Source: a phage
Reading direction: 5' to 3' (one strand)
Length of the DNA stretch: 64,000 nucleotides
Sequence record: OZ346219.1
Shown: positions 5,402 through 20,228 of the stretch, piece by piece
How the letters are laid out: each line of letters starts with the position of its first letter
Position numbering within the stretch: position 1 is the stretch's first letter
Notes under the pieces: model-generated
Seen by the model: the letters and a program-made list of their open reading frames with translations, nothing else
Told to the model about the DNA's origin: nothing
The model's database searches: none
Program-made: the position numbers and the translations under genes

Positions 5402-6427
5402 CTAACTTTTTGCGCTATTTACCTCGGCTAAAAGTTCATCAGAAATACGCTTGACCGCCGCAAGTTCTTCCGGTTCTAGGTTTTGTTCTTCCAGATATTC
5501 ATAGACCATCTGAATAGTGCTTTTAACTTCAATAACACCTGTTTCCTGTGATGCGCTACTCTCCAGCTTATGGACCACTTTTAGCTTGTGTACAACGGCC
5601 TCTAAAGCGCTTTCTAACTTAGTTAACCCATTATCAGCGACCGTTGCGATAAGACGCACACTAAGCCCCTTAAAGCGTTCTACATCGATTTTATCATCTG
5701 ACGGGTAAGTGATACGCACATGATAAGTTTTGTCATTCTGGATAAACTCCTTTTTGTGTGTATCGGTATCGAATACCCAAAAACCACGCGGATCGTTTTC
5801 GTCACCAGCCGTTAGTGTGTATGGTGTACCAATATACGTTACGTTACCGCCATCACTGATAGTATGAAAGTGACCAGAAAACACTTCACGGTATTTCTTG
5901 AGGAAGTCCGCGCTATAACCTTCTGATTTTAGACCTTTATAGAAATAGTAACCGGACAATTCCCAATGGCCTACACAATATTCGCTGAATGAGTTTTGAA
6001 TAAACTCTAAAATCTCTGATTTATTGTCATCACAAAACCACGGGAACAGATCAAATGATACACCATCAAAGGTGACTGTTTCCGGTTTATCGATAACCTT
6101 AATGCAATCATACTGGCTTAACACTTCACGCGGTGCGTTAGGCTGGATCTTGTTTCGTTTAAACATATCATGGTTCCCGACCGTGATATAACAAGTAATT
6201 CCAGCCTCTTCCAGTAATGGGATGACCTTAGTACGGTTAAATTTCATGGTTTCATGGGTAATTGCTTTTCGGCAATCAAACCAATCCCCTGTTTGAATCC
6301 ATGTCTTAATATTATGCTCTTTGGAGTATTCAACCGCCTTCTTGATGGTATCAAGAATATACTCATGCACCCACGGATCATCGCCACCGATACCAGTATG
6401 CAGATCACCTAAAAGCAAAATTTTCAT
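5402..6427 (-). CDS. 47: Recombination endonuclease subunit gp47 (Mre11/SbcD-like phosphoesterase)
   Basis: MKILLLGDLHTGIGGDD...VGNHDM...GHWELSGYYFYKG closely matches T4 gp47 including metallophosphatase motifs. Confidence 0.9.
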   Translation of the reverse strand: MKILLLGDLHTGIGGDDPWVHEYILDTIKKAVEYSKEHNIKTWIQTGDWFDCRKAITHETMKFNRTKVIPLLEEAGITCYITVGNHDMFKRNKIQPNAPREVLSQYDCIKVIDKPETVTFDGVSFDLFPWFCDDNKSEILEFIQNSFSEYCVGHWELSGYYFYKGLKSEGYSADFLKKYREVFSGHFHTISDGGNVTYIGTPYTLTAGDENDPRGFWVFDTDTHKKEFIQNDKTYHVRITYPSDDKIDVERFKGLSVRLIATVADNGLTKLESALEAVVHKLKVVHKLESSASQETGVIEVKSTIQMVYEYLEEQNLEPEELAAVKRISDELLAEVNSAKS

Positions 6428-6517
6428 AGTCTCTTCCTCTCTTCGTTTTCGATGCTCTCACTATATCACAGAAAAATAAAAAGGGAAACCCCTTTCAGAG
6501 TCTCCCCTATAAAGCCA

Positions 6518-6805
6518 TTACAGCATACTTAATACCGTTTGCCGTGTACTAATCCACATAGCAGAAAGCAGTTCTGGCGTGTGTGGCTGTTTGTAGATAT
6601 CACGTAACTTTCCGATAGCGTAGATATACGCATCACGGTTATCATCGATGATAGCTTGTTCAGCCCACCGCTTAAGGCGTGCAATCTCTCGCGAGTTCTT
6701 ACGCAAGATCTTTTCCGCTTTCTTAGCGGCTTTAGCCTCTAGTTCTGCTTGTACTTTGTCTACTTCATTCACTGCAATCTGGTCATGCTGTTCATCGTAA
6801 GTCAT
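6518..6805 (-). CDS. Hypothetical protein
   Basis: 95-aa ORF between gp55 and gp47. Confidence 0.4.
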   Translation of the reverse strand: MTYDEQHDQIAVNEVDKVQAELEAKAAKKAEKILRKNSREIARLKRWAEQAIIDDNRDAYIYAIGKLRDIYKQPHTPELLSAMWISTRQTVLSML

Positions 6806-6806
6806 G

Positions 6807-7040
6807 TTATTTTCCTTCTGGGATATAGTCGATGATTAAAGAAAATTCATCTTCTGATACATTATAGCTATGTGAGATTGTACCCGTAAAGACCTCAAGA
6901 TCCGGTGATTTGATATTGCACGGATCGATAATCACCGGAACGCCGCAATCTCTCAAAAATAATTTGGCGAAATACGGCACAAGGTCAGTTTCAAACTCTG
7001 CTTCTTCCAGCAAACGGGAAATGTTAATTTTCAATCTCAT
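6807..7040 (-). CDS. Hypothetical protein
   Basis: 77-aa ORF between gp55 and gp47. Confidence 0.4.
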
Positions 7041-7557
7041 AAAATTGGTCCAAGCTAGGCAATTCCTCGGTCAATACATCTTCAACCTTTGGCGCTTTCG
7101 GTTTATTGACCGATTCCTCGTAGTTGTTGATTTTATCGTAAATGTCCTGTATGAATGCCTCATCAGCAATCTGGCACATATCAGCGTCGCGTTCGTCATA
7201 TACATGATGCACAAAATATTTGTATTTTGCGGCTGTCGCTGTTCTCTCTTTTTTAATGCGCTGTACAAAAGCATTAAAGCACGCTTGCGTGATGTAAGCA
7301 TGAGGATTTTTATACTTTGTCTCGTCAAAATTAATCAAACCCTTGACCGCCGCTTCGATTCCGTCGTCGATCATTTCTTCGCGCCACGTTTGACTATAAC
7401 CAGAAAAGTTAAAACGACGTGATAGATTTTTAGAGATTTGCATAATTGCTAGGCCGATTTGATCGCTCATTGGAACTTGCCGACCTTCTGCTGCAATTTG
7501 TTGTTTCCAACGGCAAATTTCTTCGTAAAGCTCTTTATTGTTTACATAATCAGACAC
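7024..7557 (-). CDS. 55: Late-transcription sigma factor gp55
   Basis: [11 protein letters not shown]...[58 protein letters not shown] nearly identical in blocks to T4 gp55. Confidence 0.9.
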
Positions 7558-7597
7558 TTCGCACCCTCGCTATTATTTAGGAAATAACCCTTTCGGG

Positions 7598-9067
7598 CTA
7601 TTCCCCATTACCATTATACTTTCTTTGCTTAGTTATCCACACTCTAACCATCTCTACAGATTCGCCGTCAGACGGATCAAGAGTTTTTCCTTTTTTCTTC
7701 ATGCGGTACTTAAATCCGTTAAATCTTGCATTCTCTTGCTCGTTAAAGTCGAACATCTTTTTAAATGATTTTCGCCCTTTACGTTCACCACATTCTAGCG
7801 GAATCATTCGATCTGTTATTACATTGGCATTAGGCAGAAACGTTTTTAGATAATCCACCAACGCCCAATCAGGAACATATAGATTAACATTCTCCTTGCT
7901 CTCGTTGTCTCTCAGGTTACAACGCAAACATAATTGAAATGCTGGTTCCAGATAATCAGACACATGACGCGCTTTCAAAAACTCGTTTGTCGGGAGATCA
8001 CAACTATTAGCAAGACCTTTTAAAATATCAATCTCCCATCGTTGAGGGTTAAAGCTGAACATCACAGCAACATTTTTATGATGAATGTAAGAGTTAAGAC
8101 CATAAGACCCGTAAGGTATCCGCTCACCAATACCATTTGTACACGCTTCACGGTCCCGATTCACGGTATAAATGAAGTCATCGCCACATTCATTTTTAAC
8201 CATATCAACAAGACGTTCAAAGGTATTGTTTGTTTCTGACTGGTGACGCGACCATCGTTCAGAGTCCGTCATAAGGATGATATTAACTCTATCTGTATTT
8301 TTATACTCTTTGAAATATAGTCTGGATTCTAGCGCACTCGGAACAAAATCGCAATTTGCATAGTATCGTAGATACTTCCCACTATATGTATCAAAGAGAT
8401 TTGCACATGCTATCGTAACCTTTTTAAAGTCTCCCCACGTACCGTGTTTGTTATCGTTCAAGAAAACAATTTTCGACCCATTCTTCCGGTGTCCTTCGTT
8501 ATGTTTTACCATAACGTTGATTTTCTTCTCTAATAACGCCTCATAAAGCCCTCTAAGAGAAGAATCGATCATATCAGTACCATCCTTCGCACTTTCTATC
8601 TTTTCTTTGATAGCGGCCTTCTCAGAGTCTTTTAGAACTAAGTTCTGTAGGCATTCCGATTCGTCGGCGATTGGTTCGCAATGCTTAGTGATAAGTTCAA
8701 GATTAGACTTAAACGGATACTCATTAAATTCAACCAGTTGAGGAACTTCATCAATGTAAAGAGCATAATCACCAAACATTTTTGAACGTTCCATATTAGA
8801 TAACGCTGTATGTGTAATGAATATCACATCAGCACCATCTTTAACTGATTGCATTATCGACGCTTGCACTGTCTTAAGGCTTCTTAGTCTTGTGCTATCA
8901 ATCAAGACAGCACGACCGCCCATTCTTTTAAACTTATTGTAAGATTGTTCACTTAAAACACGAGATGGCGAAGCAATAACCGCTTTTTCTTTTGTCTCTA
9001 GGACGTGGGAAAGTATAGCATCAGTTTTCCCCGCCGCTGGCAATGCGATTAATGTTTCAATCTTCAT
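7598..9067 (-). CDS. Uncharacterised P-loop NTPase (489 aa)
   Basis: Walker A-like LPAAGKT near N-terminus and Walker B-like ALYIDEV about 95 aa later; ATG overlaps stop of upstream ORF (TAATG); no match to T4 helicases/ligase that I can recall. Confidence 0.6.
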   Translation of the reverse strand: MKIETLIALPAAGKTDAILSHVLETKEKAVIASPSRVLSEQSYNKFKRMGGRAVLIDSTRLRSLKTVQASIMQSVKDGADVIFITHTALSNMERSKMFGDYALYIDEVPQLVEFNEYPFKSNLELITKHCEPIADESECLQNLVLKDSEKAAIKEKIESAKDGTDMIDSSLRGLYEALLEKKINVMVKHNEGHRKNGSKIVFLNDNKHGTWGDFKKVTIACANLFDTYSGKYLRYYANCDFVPSALESRLYFKEYKNTDRVNIILMTDSERWSRHQSETNNTFERLVDMVKNECGDDFIYTVNRDREACTNGIGERIPYGSYGLNSYIHHKNVAVMFSFNPQRWEIDILKGLANSCDLPTNEFLKARHVSDYLEPAFQLCLRCNLRDNESKENVNLYVPDWALVDYLKTFLPNANVITDRMIPLECGERKGRKSFKKMFDFNEQENARFNGFKYRMKKKGKTLDPSDGESVEMVRVWITKQRKYNGNGE

Positions 9068-9354
9068 TAGAAACCCTTACGTCGTTCTTTCTGGCATTTC
9101 TTGATCATTTTATCAGAAATTTCGCGCTTAGGTGCAATCTCTTTCACACCGAAAGCACTAATGCCAAATTCAGAGAGAATATATTCAACCAACAATTCAC
9201 GCACACGCGCTTTACCGATATTCACGCCGTTATTTTTCAGATATGTCTGGCCTTCGACTTGCATCAGATCTAAATCTGCGTCGGTAATATTGATTTCTTC
9301 CATGCGCCCAAATCGAGAATAAACCATGTGTGCGATTGCATTGTGTACTAACAT
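9067..9354 (-). CDS. Hypothetical protein translationally coupled to the P-loop NTPase
   Basis: ORF with GAGGAA SD and ATG at 9354; stop overlaps NTPase start. Confidence 0.5.
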   Translation of the reverse strand: MLVHNAIAHMVYSRFGRMEEINITDADLDLMQVEGQTYLKNNGVNIGKARVRELLVEYILSEFGISAFGVKEIAPKREISDKMIKKCQKERRKGF

Positions 9355-9375
9355 AATATATTCCTCACTCAAGAA

Positions 9376-9534
9376 TTACTTAATGATACTTACTTTACCA
9401 GATCCATGACAATGAGCGCAACACCCATCACCACGCAATCCTGTTCCGTTACAGTGTTTACACTTCTTCAACGGTAAAGCCATTATAGCAAATAAAGCAA
9501 TAATGAATACCGAAACTAAATTCTCAATAATCAT
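9376..9534 (-). CDS. Micro-protein (52 aa) with N-terminal hydrophobic helix and DnaJ-type CxxCxGxG zinc-finger repeats
   Basis: Hand-translated: MIIENLVSVFIIALFAIMALPLKKCKHCNGTGLRGDGCCAHCHGSGKVSIIK; not in ORF track (<60 aa). Confidence 0.4.
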   Translation of the reverse strand: MIIENLVSVFIIALFAIMALPLKKCKHCNGTGLRGDGCCAHCHGSGKVSIIK

Positions 9535-9793
9535 AAATCGCCCTCAGTTCTTTATAGCCTCCAATGTGCTCGTTGTCAATGAATATCTGGGGGTATACAA
9601 ACCGGAGGCTCTTTGAGTTCAGCCTCCCCGCCAGTTCTTCAATCATATCACGGTCGGGAATAATGTCAACCCCGACCTGCTTGAATACTGGTTTAAGTGT
9701 ATATGGAATACCCAGATCATCCAGTAGCTTCATTGCACTAATACAACCATAACAATGATAAGCCTCTTTCGGTATACCGTATATCTCGATCAT
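9524..9793 (-). CDS. Glutaredoxin-like protein (NrdH-like)
   Basis: CYGC redox motif near N-terminus, about 89 aa, C-terminal IGGY motif; position corresponds to T4 nrdH. Confidence 0.7.
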   Translation of the reverse strand: MIEIYGIPKEAYHCYGCISAMKLLDDLGIPYTLKPVFKQVGVDIIPDRDMIEELAGRLNSKSLRFVYPQIFIDNEHIGGYKELRAIYDY

Positions 9794-10266
9794 TTCTCAG
9801 CCTTTAATCTTTCTAGTTCTTCTTCCAGTTCCTTGATCCGTTGGTCACGTTCAAAGTCACGCTGCAACTTAGTGGCGAATACTCGTTTAAACTGATTGTA
9901 ATCATCGATTTTAAACACTTCTTCTTCGCCATAGCGACGCACAGAAACTTCGTAGTTATTGAAGAATTGTTGCATCATTGCTTCGGATGATAGTTCTGCT
10001 GATACTACTTTAAAATATTGATCTTCGGTAGGTGAAAACCAATTACAAGCATAAAGATAAACCTTTTCATTGTCTGGACACTGGTAAGCCTTACCATCGA
10101 TTTCAATCACAGAAACATATTCAGGTATAGTAGATGAATCAATAGCTAAGACTTTAAACTGACGGTCCCCGATAAACTCGGAGATCACACGATTCGCATC
10201 ACTGGTTGCAAAGGCTTTACGCGCTTGTTCGTTTTTCCACTGATAGGTCATGCCAACAACAAACAT
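9790..10266 (-). CDS. Paralogue family member 4 (divergent WEVGKTY-domain protein)
   Basis: N-terminus MFVVGMTYQWK aligns to MKWEVGKTYTWK of neighbours; C-terminal coiled-coil tail. Confidence 0.55.
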   Translation of the reverse strand: MFVVGMTYQWKNEQARKAFATSDANRVISEFIGDRQFKVLAIDSSTIPEYVSVIEIDGKAYQCPDNEKVYLYACNWFSPTEDQYFKVVSAELSSEAMMQQFFNNYEVSVRRYGEEEVFKIDDYNQFKRVFATKLQRDFERDQRIKELEEELERLKAEK

Positions 10267-10267
10267 A

Positions 10268-11092
10268 TTACCAACCTCGCTCTTTACCAATCAAAAATTC
10301 AACTTCACGACGTTTAATGTCTTCTTGAAGGTCTTTAATCTTCTGGCGATCTTGCATTATTTCGTCCATCTTGTCAAGTGCTGCGATGAAATCATCGAAA
10401 CGTTCAAAGGTTTTACCTTCATTTGCTTCGCTAAATTTAACCATTGTCAGGCCATAACGACTACTAAACAGACGTTTCAACTGTCCAACGATCTTAGAAT
10501 CAGTGGTTATAACTTCCAATTCTTCTACTTCACGAAAGAATTTTCTATCAGAATCAATAAACCAGCTAGTTCCTTTATGGTCGCTATCTTCGGTTGCACT
10601 CATTAGAGTATGGTCTTTACCATCAATTTCAATTACATTAACTTGCCCACATAGACTAACATTTTTAACAGTAAAAGGTCTATAATTTATTGCTCGTGCA
10701 ATAACATAATTAAGGTTAGATACGTTTTCAGCATAATGACAGAAGTCGGTCATAGCATTCGCATCTTTCCAAGTATAAGTTTTACCAACTTCCCATTTCT
10801 GGGGAACTTCTTCAACTTCACGAAAGAATTTTCGATCGAATGGACTAAAGAAATATGTTGCAGTCCAAATGTCTTTTCCTGTAGCAGTTTTCGCCGTATG
10901 ATAAACACCGTCTAGCTCTATTGCATTAATCCAACCGTTACCCTCGATCTCGATGATGGTAAATGGCTTGTCACCAATAGCTGCACTAATATCGCTGTTA
11001 AGTGGAGAAAGAACACCTTCTCCGTTAGTAATAAACTCAGTTTTAGAGTTTTCATCTTTCCAAGTGTAAGTTTTACCAATTTCCCATTTCAT
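10268..11092 (-). CDS. Paralogue family member 3, two tandem WEVGKTY domains
   Basis: MKWEIGKTYTWKD... and internal QKWEVGKTYTWKD..., each followed by DRKFFREVEE. Confidence 0.6.
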   Translation of the reverse strand: MKWEIGKTYTWKDENSKTEFITNGEGVLSPLNSDISAAIGDKPFTIIEIEGNGWINAIELDGVYHTAKTATGKDIWTATYFFSPFDRKFFREVEEVPQKWEVGKTYTWKDANAMTDFCHYAENVSNLNYVIARAINYRPFTVKNVSLCGQVNVIEIDGKDHTLMSATEDSDHKGTSWFIDSDRKFFREVEELEVITTDSKIVGQLKRLFSSRYGLTMVKFSEANEGKTFERFDDFIAALDKMDEIMQDRQKIKDLQEDIKRREVEFLIGKERGW

Positions 11093-11104
11093 AATATATT
11101 CCCC

Positions 11105-11569
11105 TTAACCGATTTTATCAAGTTCGTTTAATGCTTTCTCTGCTTCCGGTATAGCTTGCACCCTTTCCGGCATTTTGTCAAGAAAATCTTTCAACTCTTC
11201 AAAACTGGAGATATGACGCAAGGCATTAGCACCGATAGCCGCATGTGATTTGCATTCAAAGCGAATTTTATAATTATCCATAGCCAATTTGAGAAGATCA
11301 ATTAGTTTAGATTCTTCTGGAATAATAATTTCTTCAAATCTGCTACGGTCGTGACACAGAAACCAACAATATAGACCTACATCGGTTGAACTCATATAAG
11401 TTCCATCATGAAGATATACAGATCGCACGTATCCTTTTTTCGCATCAACCGACGCAACTTTAAACGGTAATCTCAGATATTTCAAATAATCAACATCATA
11501 CCATTTAAAAAATTGTTTTGCATCTTTTACATCTTTCCACGCATAGGTCTTACCAACTTCCCATTTCAT
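11105..11569 (-). CDS. Paralogue family member 2 (WEVGKTY domain)
   Basis: MKWEVGKTYAWKD at ATG 11569. Confidence 0.6.
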   Translation of the reverse strand: MKWEVGKTYAWKDVKDAKQFFKWYDVDYLKYLRLPFKVASVDAKKGYVRSVYLHDGTYMSSTDVGLYCWFLCHDRSRFEEIIIPEESKLIDLLKLAMDNYKIRFECKSHAAIGANALRHISSFEELKDFLDKMPERVQAIPEAEKALNELDKIG

Positions 11570-11573
11570 AATA

Positions 11574-12101
11574 TCATCTCTCATTTTTGATACGTGATTC
11601 TAATTGGATCATACGGTCGCGCGTTTGCTTATATTCTCGGATAGCACCGATCCGGCTAGGCATACCATCCAGTACGCTCTTAATACCTTCTAGGGTAGTG
11701 ATTTTAGCAATGCTATTATGTAACCCCATCTTATCGATCAACTGAATGTCGTAGGCTTCCATAAGCAGACCCAGGAGTTCTAAAGTTAGGTCTTCTTCTT
11801 TTTCTTCCGATTCTGGAATCTTAGGTTCAATAGTAACTTCGGTAAAGAAACGACGCTCACCAGACCAAAACCACACACCGGAACAGCCAATAGGGGATTC
11901 TTTTAACGTCATAGAGTCGTAACCACTTCCGATAATAGTAATTTCTCTAACATCACCATCATCGTCAATGTCTTCTACCATAAACGGGCGACCAGCCAAC
12001 AGGTCCACAATACATCTGTTAATAGACGACGAAAATTTAGTCAGTTCGGCTTTCGACGCTTCACATTCAATCTTGTAAGTTTTACCAACTTCCCATTCCA
12101 T
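11574..12101 (-). CDS. Paralogue family member 1 (WEVGKTY domain)
   Basis: MEWEVGKTYKIE after GAGGTGA SD. Confidence 0.6.
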   Translation of the reverse strand: MEWEVGKTYKIECEASKAELTKFSSSINRCIVDLLAGRPFMVEDIDDDGDVREITIIGSGYDSMTLKESPIGCSGVWFWSGERRFFTEVTIEPKIPESEEKEEDLTLELLGLLMEAYDIQLIDKMGLHNSIAKITTLEGIKSVLDGMPSRIGAIREYKQTRDRMIQLESRIKNER

Positions 12102-12111
12102 AATAATCACC

Positions 12112-19434: not shown

Positions 19435-19731
19435 TCATATCTCAGAGAATAGAATCTCTGTTAATCGTACTGACTGCTCTCTGAATGTTAGCGTATACTC
19501 GAAAGGAAAGTCAACACCTAATTTCATAAGAGAATAGCCTACCGCCTCTTTATGCTTGTCTGTTAGGGCAATCCTAACCAATTCCCGTTGAATCTCTTTA
19601 GGCGGTGAATGGATAGTAACACGGGTATCATGTAATGTCCAGTCACCATTTCGAATTAAGATTAACGGTTTATCATCATTGAAGATCACCGACCCCTTTC
19701 CGGTCGGTGAGTGTTTTATACTAATCATCAA
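19435..19731 (-). CDS. Hypothetical protein
   Basis: 98-aa ORF. Confidence 0.4.
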   Translation of the reverse strand: MMISIKHSPTGKGSVIFNDDKPLILIRNGDWTLHDTRVTIHSPPKEIQRELVRIALTDKHKEAVGYSLMKLGVDFPFEYTLTFREQSVRLTEILFSEI

Positions 19732-19942
19732 ATTCTAAGAAATATTCTGGAACGATATAACCGTTAAAGTCATTACACTTATAAAAATGTGGTGCATTTA
19801 ATGCTGGATGAGCATTAGTAAAGAGTTTACCCTCTAGAAACAGAATGTAATTAATAGGTCTAATACCTACAGAATCAGGGTCTAAACCTTTTTCTTTCAG
19901 TTCAGCCAGCGTTAAAACTCGTCCAGATCGTAACTTAGCCAT
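19721..19942 (-). CDS. Hypothetical protein
   Basis: 73-aa ORF. Confidence 0.4.
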   Translation of the reverse strand: MAKLRSGRVLTLAELKEKGLDPDSVGIRPINYILFLEGKLFTNAHPALNAPHFYKCNDFNGYIVPEYFLEFDD

Positions 19943-20228
19943 GATTTACCCCTAATTCATCAAGATTATGTCGCAGCATTTCAGAGTATTTTTCTACTTC
20001 CTTGATCTTAGTGTGGATCTCCACGATCTCATCTTCACTATCAGATAGTTTAATGGCAATAGCGAGCGTGCTTTTACCAGCTTTCATAGTCTCTTTCCGT
20101 TCAACCAATAGATCCGCGTGTTTCAATAGCAATTCTTCACGTCGAACATAAGCGACGGTCAAAGCCTCATCAGCGATTTCTAAAGCATTTTCAGCGACAC
20201 CAACAACCATTTTACGAGTAGACAGCAT
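19935..20228 (-). CDS. Hypothetical protein
   Basis: 97-aa ORF. Confidence 0.4.
   Translation of the reverse strand: MLSTRKMVVGVAENALEIADEALTVAYVRREELLLKHADLLVERKETMKAGKSTLAIAIKLSDSEDEIVEIHTKIKEVEKYSEMLRHNLDELGVNHG

Follow-up and report, generated by a model that had tools for sequence, protein, structure and literature searches.

The locus described here lies in a 64,000-nucleotide stretch of phage DNA (sequence record OZ346219.1), which is called the window throughout. Positions 7000-9800 match Krischvirus phage kaaroe at 99.9% identity and RB49 at 99.0%, and by sequence the DNA is that of a Krischvirus, an RB49-like relative of T4. All genes of the locus are on the minus strand. Between the gene for an NrdH-like glutaredoxin and gene 55, there are three open reading frames (ORFs) of 52, 95 and 489 amino acids (aa), as a first-pass annotation of the window had found. 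That annotation read them as an uncharacterised operon, in which a P-loop NTPase is translationally coupled to a 95-aa partner and preceded by a DnaJ-type zinc-finger protein. In RB49, the 489-aa and 52-aa products are labelled hypothetical proteins and the 95-aa product 'gp55.2 conserved hypothetical protein'; one related record lists a homologue of the 489-aa protein as 'putative helicase'. In our analysis, it is likely (probability about 0.7) that the locus consists of three separate early-region genes. The 489-aa product would be an accessory superfamily 2 (SF2) helicase or translocase of the XPD/DinG-like type, the 95-aa product gp55.2, and the 52-aa product a zinc ribbon.

The 489-aa protein begins with MKIETLIALPAAGKT. 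The Walker A-like sequence LPAAGKT and the Walker B-like sequence ALYIDEV that had been pointed out in this ORF are present, with 92 residues from K14 to D106. The C-terminal 370 or so residues, in which the first-pass annotation could place no motif, actually hold a second RecA-like lobe and motif VI (Q378, R382 and R386). The features expected of SF2 proteins are present: Walker A and B motifs, two tandem RecA-like domains and, in the second of these, the arginines of motif VI. Taken together, its two lobes are predicted to carry motifs I, Ia, Ib, II (DEVP) and VI (QxxxRxxxR). The protein matches the PHROG family phrog_2467, of unknown function, from end to end (E 2.9e-175), and 41 full-length homologues share 31-74% identity. 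In the alignment, 54 positions are invariant, including the Walker A and B residues and the QxxxRxxxR motif; the only invariant cysteines are C130 and C380. A tblastn search found the gene in 244 phage records. In view of the full-length homologues, the number of records and the invariant ATPase motifs, the ORF is more than a chance reading frame.

The fold of the protein points to a more specific class. An AlphaFold model built on the homologue alignment (predicted local distance difference test score 87.7, predicted template modelling score 0.75) was compared with known structures using Foldseek, and the top 15 matches were all DinG, XPD or CasDinG structures, with E values from 3e-10 to 3e-7. 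Another model was made on a separate alignment for a relative of 799 aa that is 24% identical to the window protein, and it gave the same picture, with XPD, CasDinG, DinG and Rad3 in the top five places. Both RecA-like lobes align with many SF2 structures. However, XPD and DinG structures align over 314-369 residues, 60-110 more than the approximately 250 residues covered by other SF2 classes, and DEAD-box structures, which align over one or two RecA lobes only, rank below all XPD/DinG matches. About 100 residues of mixed alpha/beta structure are inserted into the first lobe and, in the secondary structure of the model, occupy the position of the XPD/DinG arch. In XPD/DinG proteins, the arch domain follows motif II and precedes the next core strand (PMC10450177). 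The structural comparison that the first-pass annotation had proposed thus placed the fold. As there is no join to XPD or DinG at the sequence level, the protein is best described by its architecture: judging from the model, it is an SF2 helicase of XPD/DinG-like architecture and not a member of the XPD/DinG family.

Several observations weigh against this assignment. PDB sequences gave no match in searches with phmmer or with a 42-sequence profile, and the Pfam scan of the protein returned neither DEAD_2 (PF06733) nor Helicase_C_2 (PF13307). An hhalign comparison of the family profile with Escherichia coli DinG was not significant (probability 0.6%). In the model, the likeness to XPD and DinG is one of fold level only, and the first-lobe insertion is arch-like by its position. 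Only about 35 residues separate motif Ia from motif Ib, and together with the presence of just two invariant cysteines this indicates that the protein has no Fe-S domain, not even a vestigial one. In XPD-type helicases, the Fe-S domain couples ATP hydrolysis to unwinding. Without such a domain, the 489-aa protein could translocate on or remodel nucleic acids without unwinding them.

The wider family speaks for an active motor. An exhaustive profile search yielded 1,329 clusters (50% identity) at E<=1e-3, 765 of them at E<=1e-10. Among 40 superfamily members with identities down to 17%, G13, K14, D106, E107, G323, N325, Q378, R382 and R386 are invariant and T15 is nearly so. These are the ATP-binding and arginine-finger positions and an HGLN motif, and their conservation argues for a working ATPase motor. 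Many relatives reach a length of about 800 aa and come from Bradyrhizobium chromosomes and metagenomes (for example P0043, and P0190 at L011:10001-12427). With the long form as a tblastn query, matches to the N-terminal, helicase region were found in Sinorhizobium megaplasmids, and a relative of 762 aa in jumbo phage Atu_ph07. The additional C-terminal domain of the long relatives (about 310 residues, 485-799 in P0043) has no match among Pfam or PDB sequences. Among 15 long members, 11 have a C-terminal domain that matches phrog_9765, a family with the annotation DNA primase (best E 4.9e-10); further matches of the domain are to phrog_2135 (primase) and to the N-terminal part of phrog_256. The invariant residues D579, R615 and D661 (P0043 numbering) lie on or beside predicted beta strands, and the order of the conserved acidic residues may resemble that of archaeo-eukaryotic primases. 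The 489-aa window protein lacks the primase-like domain. The fusion nevertheless favours DNA over RNA as the substrate of the helicase module and a role of the replication type. A DUF6641 gene is found nearby in both long-form contexts that were examined (L011:12669-13604 and 19580-20014, and the P0043 contig), and an ATP-dependent DNA ligase gene adjoins the Bradyrhizobium long-form locus; these neighbours suggest that the long forms belong to a mobile element or genomic island.

The 95-aa protein can be identified more directly. It scores 100.1 bits against Pfam PF24454 (DUF7570; cut-off 27), is 42% identical over 96 residues to gp55.2 of the T-even phage PP01 (BLASTP, E 3e-20), and is encoded between nrdH and gene 55, as expected for gene 55.2. 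By sequence it is the orthologue of T4 gp55.2, and the earlier view of an uncharacterised partner must be given up. In T4, gp55.2 binds DNA and inhibits E. coli topoisomerase I (PMC4396842). The ORF begins at an ATG; starting at an in-frame TTG upstream, at position 9372, it would encode 101 aa.

The 52-aa protein has the sequence MIIENLVSVFIIALFAIMALPLKKCKHCNGTGLRGDGCCAHCHGSGKVSIIK. Its hydrophobic character and its two CxxCxGxG repeats (CKHCNGTG, C25-G32, and CAHCHGSG, C39-G46) can be read directly from the sequence, in agreement with the first-pass annotation; the hydrophobic part is the N-terminus. The assignment as a DnaJ-type zinc finger holds only as far as the repeats. The four-repeat arrangement with two zinc centres is not present, the score against Pfam DnaJ_CXXCXGXG (PF00684) is 14.6 bits, below the cut-off of 32.7, and the NCBIfam DnaJ models score far under their cut-offs, so that only weak matches to DnaJ and anti-TRAP remain. 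The two repeats probably form one zinc site. As judged from its sequence, the protein is a small zinc ribbon, probably with a membrane-spanning N-terminus, and is almost confined to Krischvirus. Outside this genus there are only weak matches, mostly in Felixounavirus-type phages, and the slot between nrdH and 55.2 contains no 52-aa gene in RB16 or in Proteus phage Pm5461. This distribution argues against the protein as part of a conserved module.

Whether 55.2 and the helicase gene form a module is a separate question. The TAA stop of 55.2 (9069-9067) and the ATG of the helicase gene (9067-9065) have one base in common, as had been noticed; the minus strand reads GGTTTCTAATGAAGA. A Shine-Dalgarno-like AAGGG element is found 6 nucleotides upstream of the helicase ATG. 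The overlap had been taken as a sign of coupling. In the homologous RB49 stretch, however, start and stop codons overlap at 7 of 17 junctions, and the feature is thus not distinctive. With a hidden Markov model made from six gp55.2 sequences, 55.2 homologues were sought upstream of the helicase gene in ten sampled loci, and one was found within about 2.3 kb in all ten. In six of them (window/RB49, RB16, Pm5461, Aeromonas phage Ah1 and two metagenomic or assembly contigs) the two genes adjoin directly and overlap at the stop and start codons. In the other four lineages (phages 25, 44RR, Muldoon and IT22) two to five genes lie in between. Gene 55.2 is present in 1,093 phage records, and about 850 records, mostly of T-even phages, have it without the helicase gene. 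The comparison across T4-like genomes that the first-pass annotation had called for therefore speaks against an obligately coupled pair. The proximity of the two genes is mainly explained by the conserved T4-type order (nrdH ... 55.2 ... 55) and by compact packing, and not by an obligate complex.

A conserved small upstream partner for the helicase in phages where 55.2 is not adjacent was considered and rejected, as the genes found upstream in 44RR/25, in Muldoon and in IT22 show no relationship among themselves and resemble neither gp55.2 nor the 52-aa protein. In Aeromonas phages 25 (L015:1429-2004) and 44RR (L003:1998-2504), the upstream gene overlaps the helicase start and encodes a protein of 168-191 aa. 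This protein contains the motif YTGIGSRETP...RSGGADGAD, which we take to be akin to those of DprA/SLOG-type Rossmann proteins; the 44RR copy has no Pfam match.

Three other explanations of the locus have to be weighed. The recurrent adjacency, in six of ten lineages, weighs against a mere conservation of gene order and gives a functional link between gp55.2 and the helicase a low probability. In its most explicit form, such a link would be a DNA-topology and R-loop module: restraint of topoisomerase I by gp55.2 would raise negative supercoiling and R-loop formation, and the co-translated DinG-like helicase would process the resulting hybrids or D-loops, for example in origin firing or in transcription-replication conflicts. 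It would be in line with the overlapping genes and with the presence of a 55.2 homologue near the helicase gene in every sampled helicase phage, and unwinding of RNA/DNA hybrids has been described for CasDinG, a member of the DinG family (PMC10450177). Against it stand the many records with 55.2 alone, the unrelated genes that intervene in 44RR, 25, Muldoon and IT22, the commonplace nature of overlapping junctions, and the fact that the helicase gene has a Shine-Dalgarno-like element of its own. We regard this form of the link as unlikely. A wider proposal takes the superfamily as a large, undescribed set of minimal Fe-S-less XPD-like helicases, its fused forms in bacterial mobile elements and some phages as a new type of helicase-primase, and the standalone T4-like form together with gp55.2 as a device that handles supercoiling and R- or D-loops at replication starts; that all of this holds is quite unlikely.

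The remaining two explanations concern the 489-aa protein by itself. It could be a DEAD-box-type RNA helicase or chaperone, with transcripts of phage or host, or ribosome assembly, as its target. Its sole Pfam match above cut-off, PF00270 (DEAD, residues 11-130), would fit, with a score that barely passes (27.3 bits, cut-off 26), as would the resemblance of motifs Ia and Ib to PTRELAxQ and TPGRL of RhlE in an hhalign alignment, in which motif II is paired with the DEAD box of RhlE. However, this alignment is not significant, the motif II box is DEVP and not DEAD, and a motif III of the DEAD-box type (SAT) is missing from the protein. Since the protein starts only eight residues ahead of the P-loop, it has no Q motif either. 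The position of DEAD-box structures in the fold ranking, the insertion in the first lobe, which is foreign to DEAD-box proteins, and the DNA-primase-like domain of the long relatives also disagree with this explanation, which is weaker than the XPD-like one and highly improbable. Alternatively, the helicase could serve host range or counter-defence, or could itself set off a host defence, for example by stripping or competing with XPD-like defence helicases of the host or by remodelling nucleic-acid structures to which immune systems respond. The gene is patchily distributed among T4-like genera and occupies a variable slot, filled by the ORFan 55.1 in T-even phages, and defence helicases of similar architecture (CasDinG, Hna and DdmD) are among the fold matches. 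Yet PADLOC returned a single marginal match to an unrelated model (E 0.009, 13.6 bits, 60 residues), the literature search turned up no link of the gene to defence, and ATPase motifs that are invariant across a large superfamily, including primase-like fusions, fit core DNA metabolism better. The counter-defence machine that the first-pass annotation had in mind is thus very unlikely.

If the protein is an XPD/DinG-like motor, its activity can be pictured by analogy with XPD, DinG and CasDinG. It would most likely hold single-stranded DNA across the cleft between the two lobes, and ATP hydrolysis would then drive it in the 5' to 3' direction, so that DNA duplexes or RNA:DNA hybrids are unwound. 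RB49 annotates dda, 41 and 61 (primase) separately from the helicase gene. The 489-aa protein would be a non-core accessory beside the annotated gp41 and Dda, and presumably beside UvsW, and would help the phage to replicate or recombine its DNA or to clear obstacles. The analysis shows the identities of the genes, the fold class, the conservation of the motifs and the distribution; that the substrate is DNA, that movement is 5'-3' and that the protein serves replication or recombination is inferred. The gp55.2 orthologue would bind DNA and restrain host topoisomerase I, as in T4.

The helicase locus was examined in members of eight genera: Krischvirus, Pseudotevenvirus, Biquartavirus, Bragavirus, Roskildevirus, Muldoonvirus, Cinqassovirus and Tulanevirus. 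The gene is not found in T-even phages, T4 included, where gene 55.1 and a small hypothetical gene fill the slot between 55.2 and 55. An association of the helicase with DNA that contains unmodified cytosine was rejected, as Erwinia phage IT22 has the helicase together with an alpha-glucosyltransferase, and Aeromonas phages 44RR and 25 have it together with gene 42 (PMC2993671). Scanning of a bacterial genome collection gave only two helicase loci, and as both resemble T4-like phage contigs, close relatives of the helicase seem to be confined to phages. One of the two is a 178,077-bp contig of a Flagellimonas marina assembly (NZ_JBHSCL010000010.1), and the other a 43-kb contig of a Bacilli metagenome-assembled genome; in both, 55.2 is followed by the helicase gene, as in T4-like phages. 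The Flagellimonas contig is as large as the whole genome of a T4-like phage, and may be a co-assembled or contaminating phage.

The features of the locus are collected in Table 1. Two signals, both predicted from the sequence, suggest that the 52-aa gene, 55.2 and the helicase gene form one transcription unit, in which the genes would be read in this order. Its end would be marked by an RNA hairpin before gene 55 (-17.9 kcal/mol, z -3.85), equalled in folding energy by none of 200 shuffled sequences; terminators are annotated at the matching position in Pm5461 and Muldoon. Its start may be marked by the best-scoring promoter match of the region, about 110 nucleotides upstream of the 52-aa ORF. 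The number of promoter-like sites in the region does not exceed the shuffled expectation, and this site is a consensus match only. The start of the 52-aa ORF overlaps the end of nrdH by 11 nucleotides.

Table 1. Genes, protein motifs and predicted signals of the helicase locus (positions in the window)
Feature	Position	Strand	Basis or remark
gp47	5402-6427	minus	
a-gt.4	6518-6805	minus	
a-gt.5	6807-7040	minus	
gp55 (late sigma factor)	7024-7557	minus	phrog_234, E 4e-63
Predicted RNA hairpin, 11-bp stem, GAAA loop, no U-tract	7580-7605	minus	spans the helicase stop codon and separates the helicase gene from gene 55
489-aa putative SF2 helicase/translocase, XPD/Rad3/DinG-like fold	7598-9067	minus	phrog_2467; RB49p044 orthologue
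Motif VI, QLCLRCNLR, residues 378-386	7910-7936	minus	second-lobe arginine fingers; translation checked against the sequence
Mixed alpha/beta insertion, residues roughly 111-215, motif II to next core strand	8423-8737	minus	model secondary structure
Motif II/Walker B, ALYIDEV, residues 102-108; DEVP box, residues 106-109	8744-8764	minus	
Motif I/Walker A, LPAAGKT, residues 9-15 (AAGKT 11-15)	9023-9043	minus	
TAATG junction, 55.2 stop/helicase start	9065-9069	minus	read from the sequence
95-aa ORF, gp55.2 orthologue (DUF7570)	9067-9354	minus	PF24454, 100.1 bits
52-aa ORF, hydrophobic N-terminal helix and two CxxCxGxG repeats	9376-9534	minus	phrog_3931, E 4e-10
NrdH-like glutaredoxin	9524-9793	minus	Pfam PF00462
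Sigma-70-like promoter match, TTGACA, 16 nucleotides, TG, TATGAT (11/12)	9642-9669	minus	consensus scan; inside nrdH

Two further observations concern the flanks of the locus. In RB49, gene 47 and a-gt.4 are separated by an HNH homing-endonuclease gene (L001:1874-2428), where the window has a 90-nucleotide spacer (6428-6517) with a terminator-like hairpin (6477-6508); the endonuclease gene therefore varies between close relatives. On the other side, between nrdH and nrdG (9790-12110, minus strand), there are four successive ORFs of 166, 274, 159 and 178 aa, which correspond to RB49p048-051. Their products have in common an N-terminal module starting KWE(V/I)GKTY(T/A)WKD, present in two copies in the 274-aa protein, and form a tandem paralogue array; none of the four has a Pfam match.

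A literature search using the PHROG number, the locus tags and the term Krischvirus helicases found no study that characterises the 489-aa protein, and in this respect the first-pass annotation was right. The gene is listed with a weak DEAD/DEAH match (E 0.069) in a Pfam table from 2006 (PMC1524935), and the papers on UvsW/D10 as a retron trigger concern other helicases. NCBIfam has no matching model for either the helicase or gp55.2. Of the genes discussed here, gp55.2 has already been characterised in T4; the large ORF would encode an uncharacterised Fe-S-less accessory helicase, with the zinc micro-protein as a lineage-specific extra. T4-like phages are a reference for the enzymology of replication and recombination, yet a conserved enzyme of about 500 aa, present in at least eight genera, has gone unstudied. 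If active, it would be one more helicase at the disposal of the non-T-even phages for replication and recombination, and an unusually small model for XPD-like unwinding without an Fe-S wedge. Its frequent adjacency to 55.2 is a testable lead on DNA topology and R-loop handling in phages. For annotation, we suggest that the 489-aa 'hypothetical protein' be renamed 'XPD/DinG-like SF2 helicase' and the 95-aa gene be assigned to the gp55.2 family of topoisomerase I inhibitors, and that the 52-aa gene not be counted as part of a module.

In comparison with known systems, the 52-aa protein has CxxCxGxG repeats in common with the cysteine-rich domain of DnaJ and with anti-TRAP ribbons, but it has two repeats where DnaJ has four, no J domain, and an N-terminal hydrophobic helix of its own. 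The 95-aa protein belongs to the same Pfam family as T4 gp55.2 and occupies the same slot between nrdH and gene 55. With 95 aa compared to 108 aa in T4, it is the shorter protein, the difference being at the C-terminus, and it is followed by the helicase gene, whereas gene 55.1 follows in T4. Inhibition of topoisomerase I, as demonstrated for the T4 protein, is predicted for the orthologue by homology only. The long relatives of the helicase join primase-like and helicase domains, as do the primase-helicases of PHROGs 9765, 2135 and 256. The domain order is reversed, however, with the helicase at the N-terminus and the primase-like domain at the C-terminus. Primase-helicases usually contain a helicase of superfamily 3 or 4, unlike the XPD-like SF2 part of the long relatives.

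The closest structural relatives of the 489-aa protein are archaeal XPD, yeast Rad3, bacterial DinG and CasDinG. With them it shares the two RecA lobes, the Walker A and DExx motifs and the motif VI arginines, and the predicted insertion of its first lobe lies at the arch position. It is much smaller than most of these proteins (550-740 aa) and differs from them by the lack of an Fe-S or vestigial domain and of a Q motif, and by a basic helical C-terminal tail. The absence of an Fe-S cluster is a feature that it shares with CasDinG and with S. aureus DinG. The 5'-3' translocation on single-stranded DNA that is typical of the XPD/Rad3/DinG proteins is predicted for it by analogy only. Among phage proteins, the gene is distinct from dda, as RB49 has a dda of its own and T4 lacks the 489-aa gene. 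With T4 UvsW (SF2) and Dda (superfamily 1B), the predicted helicase would have in common that all are monomer-type accessory helicases of the phage, encoded among genes of DNA metabolism.

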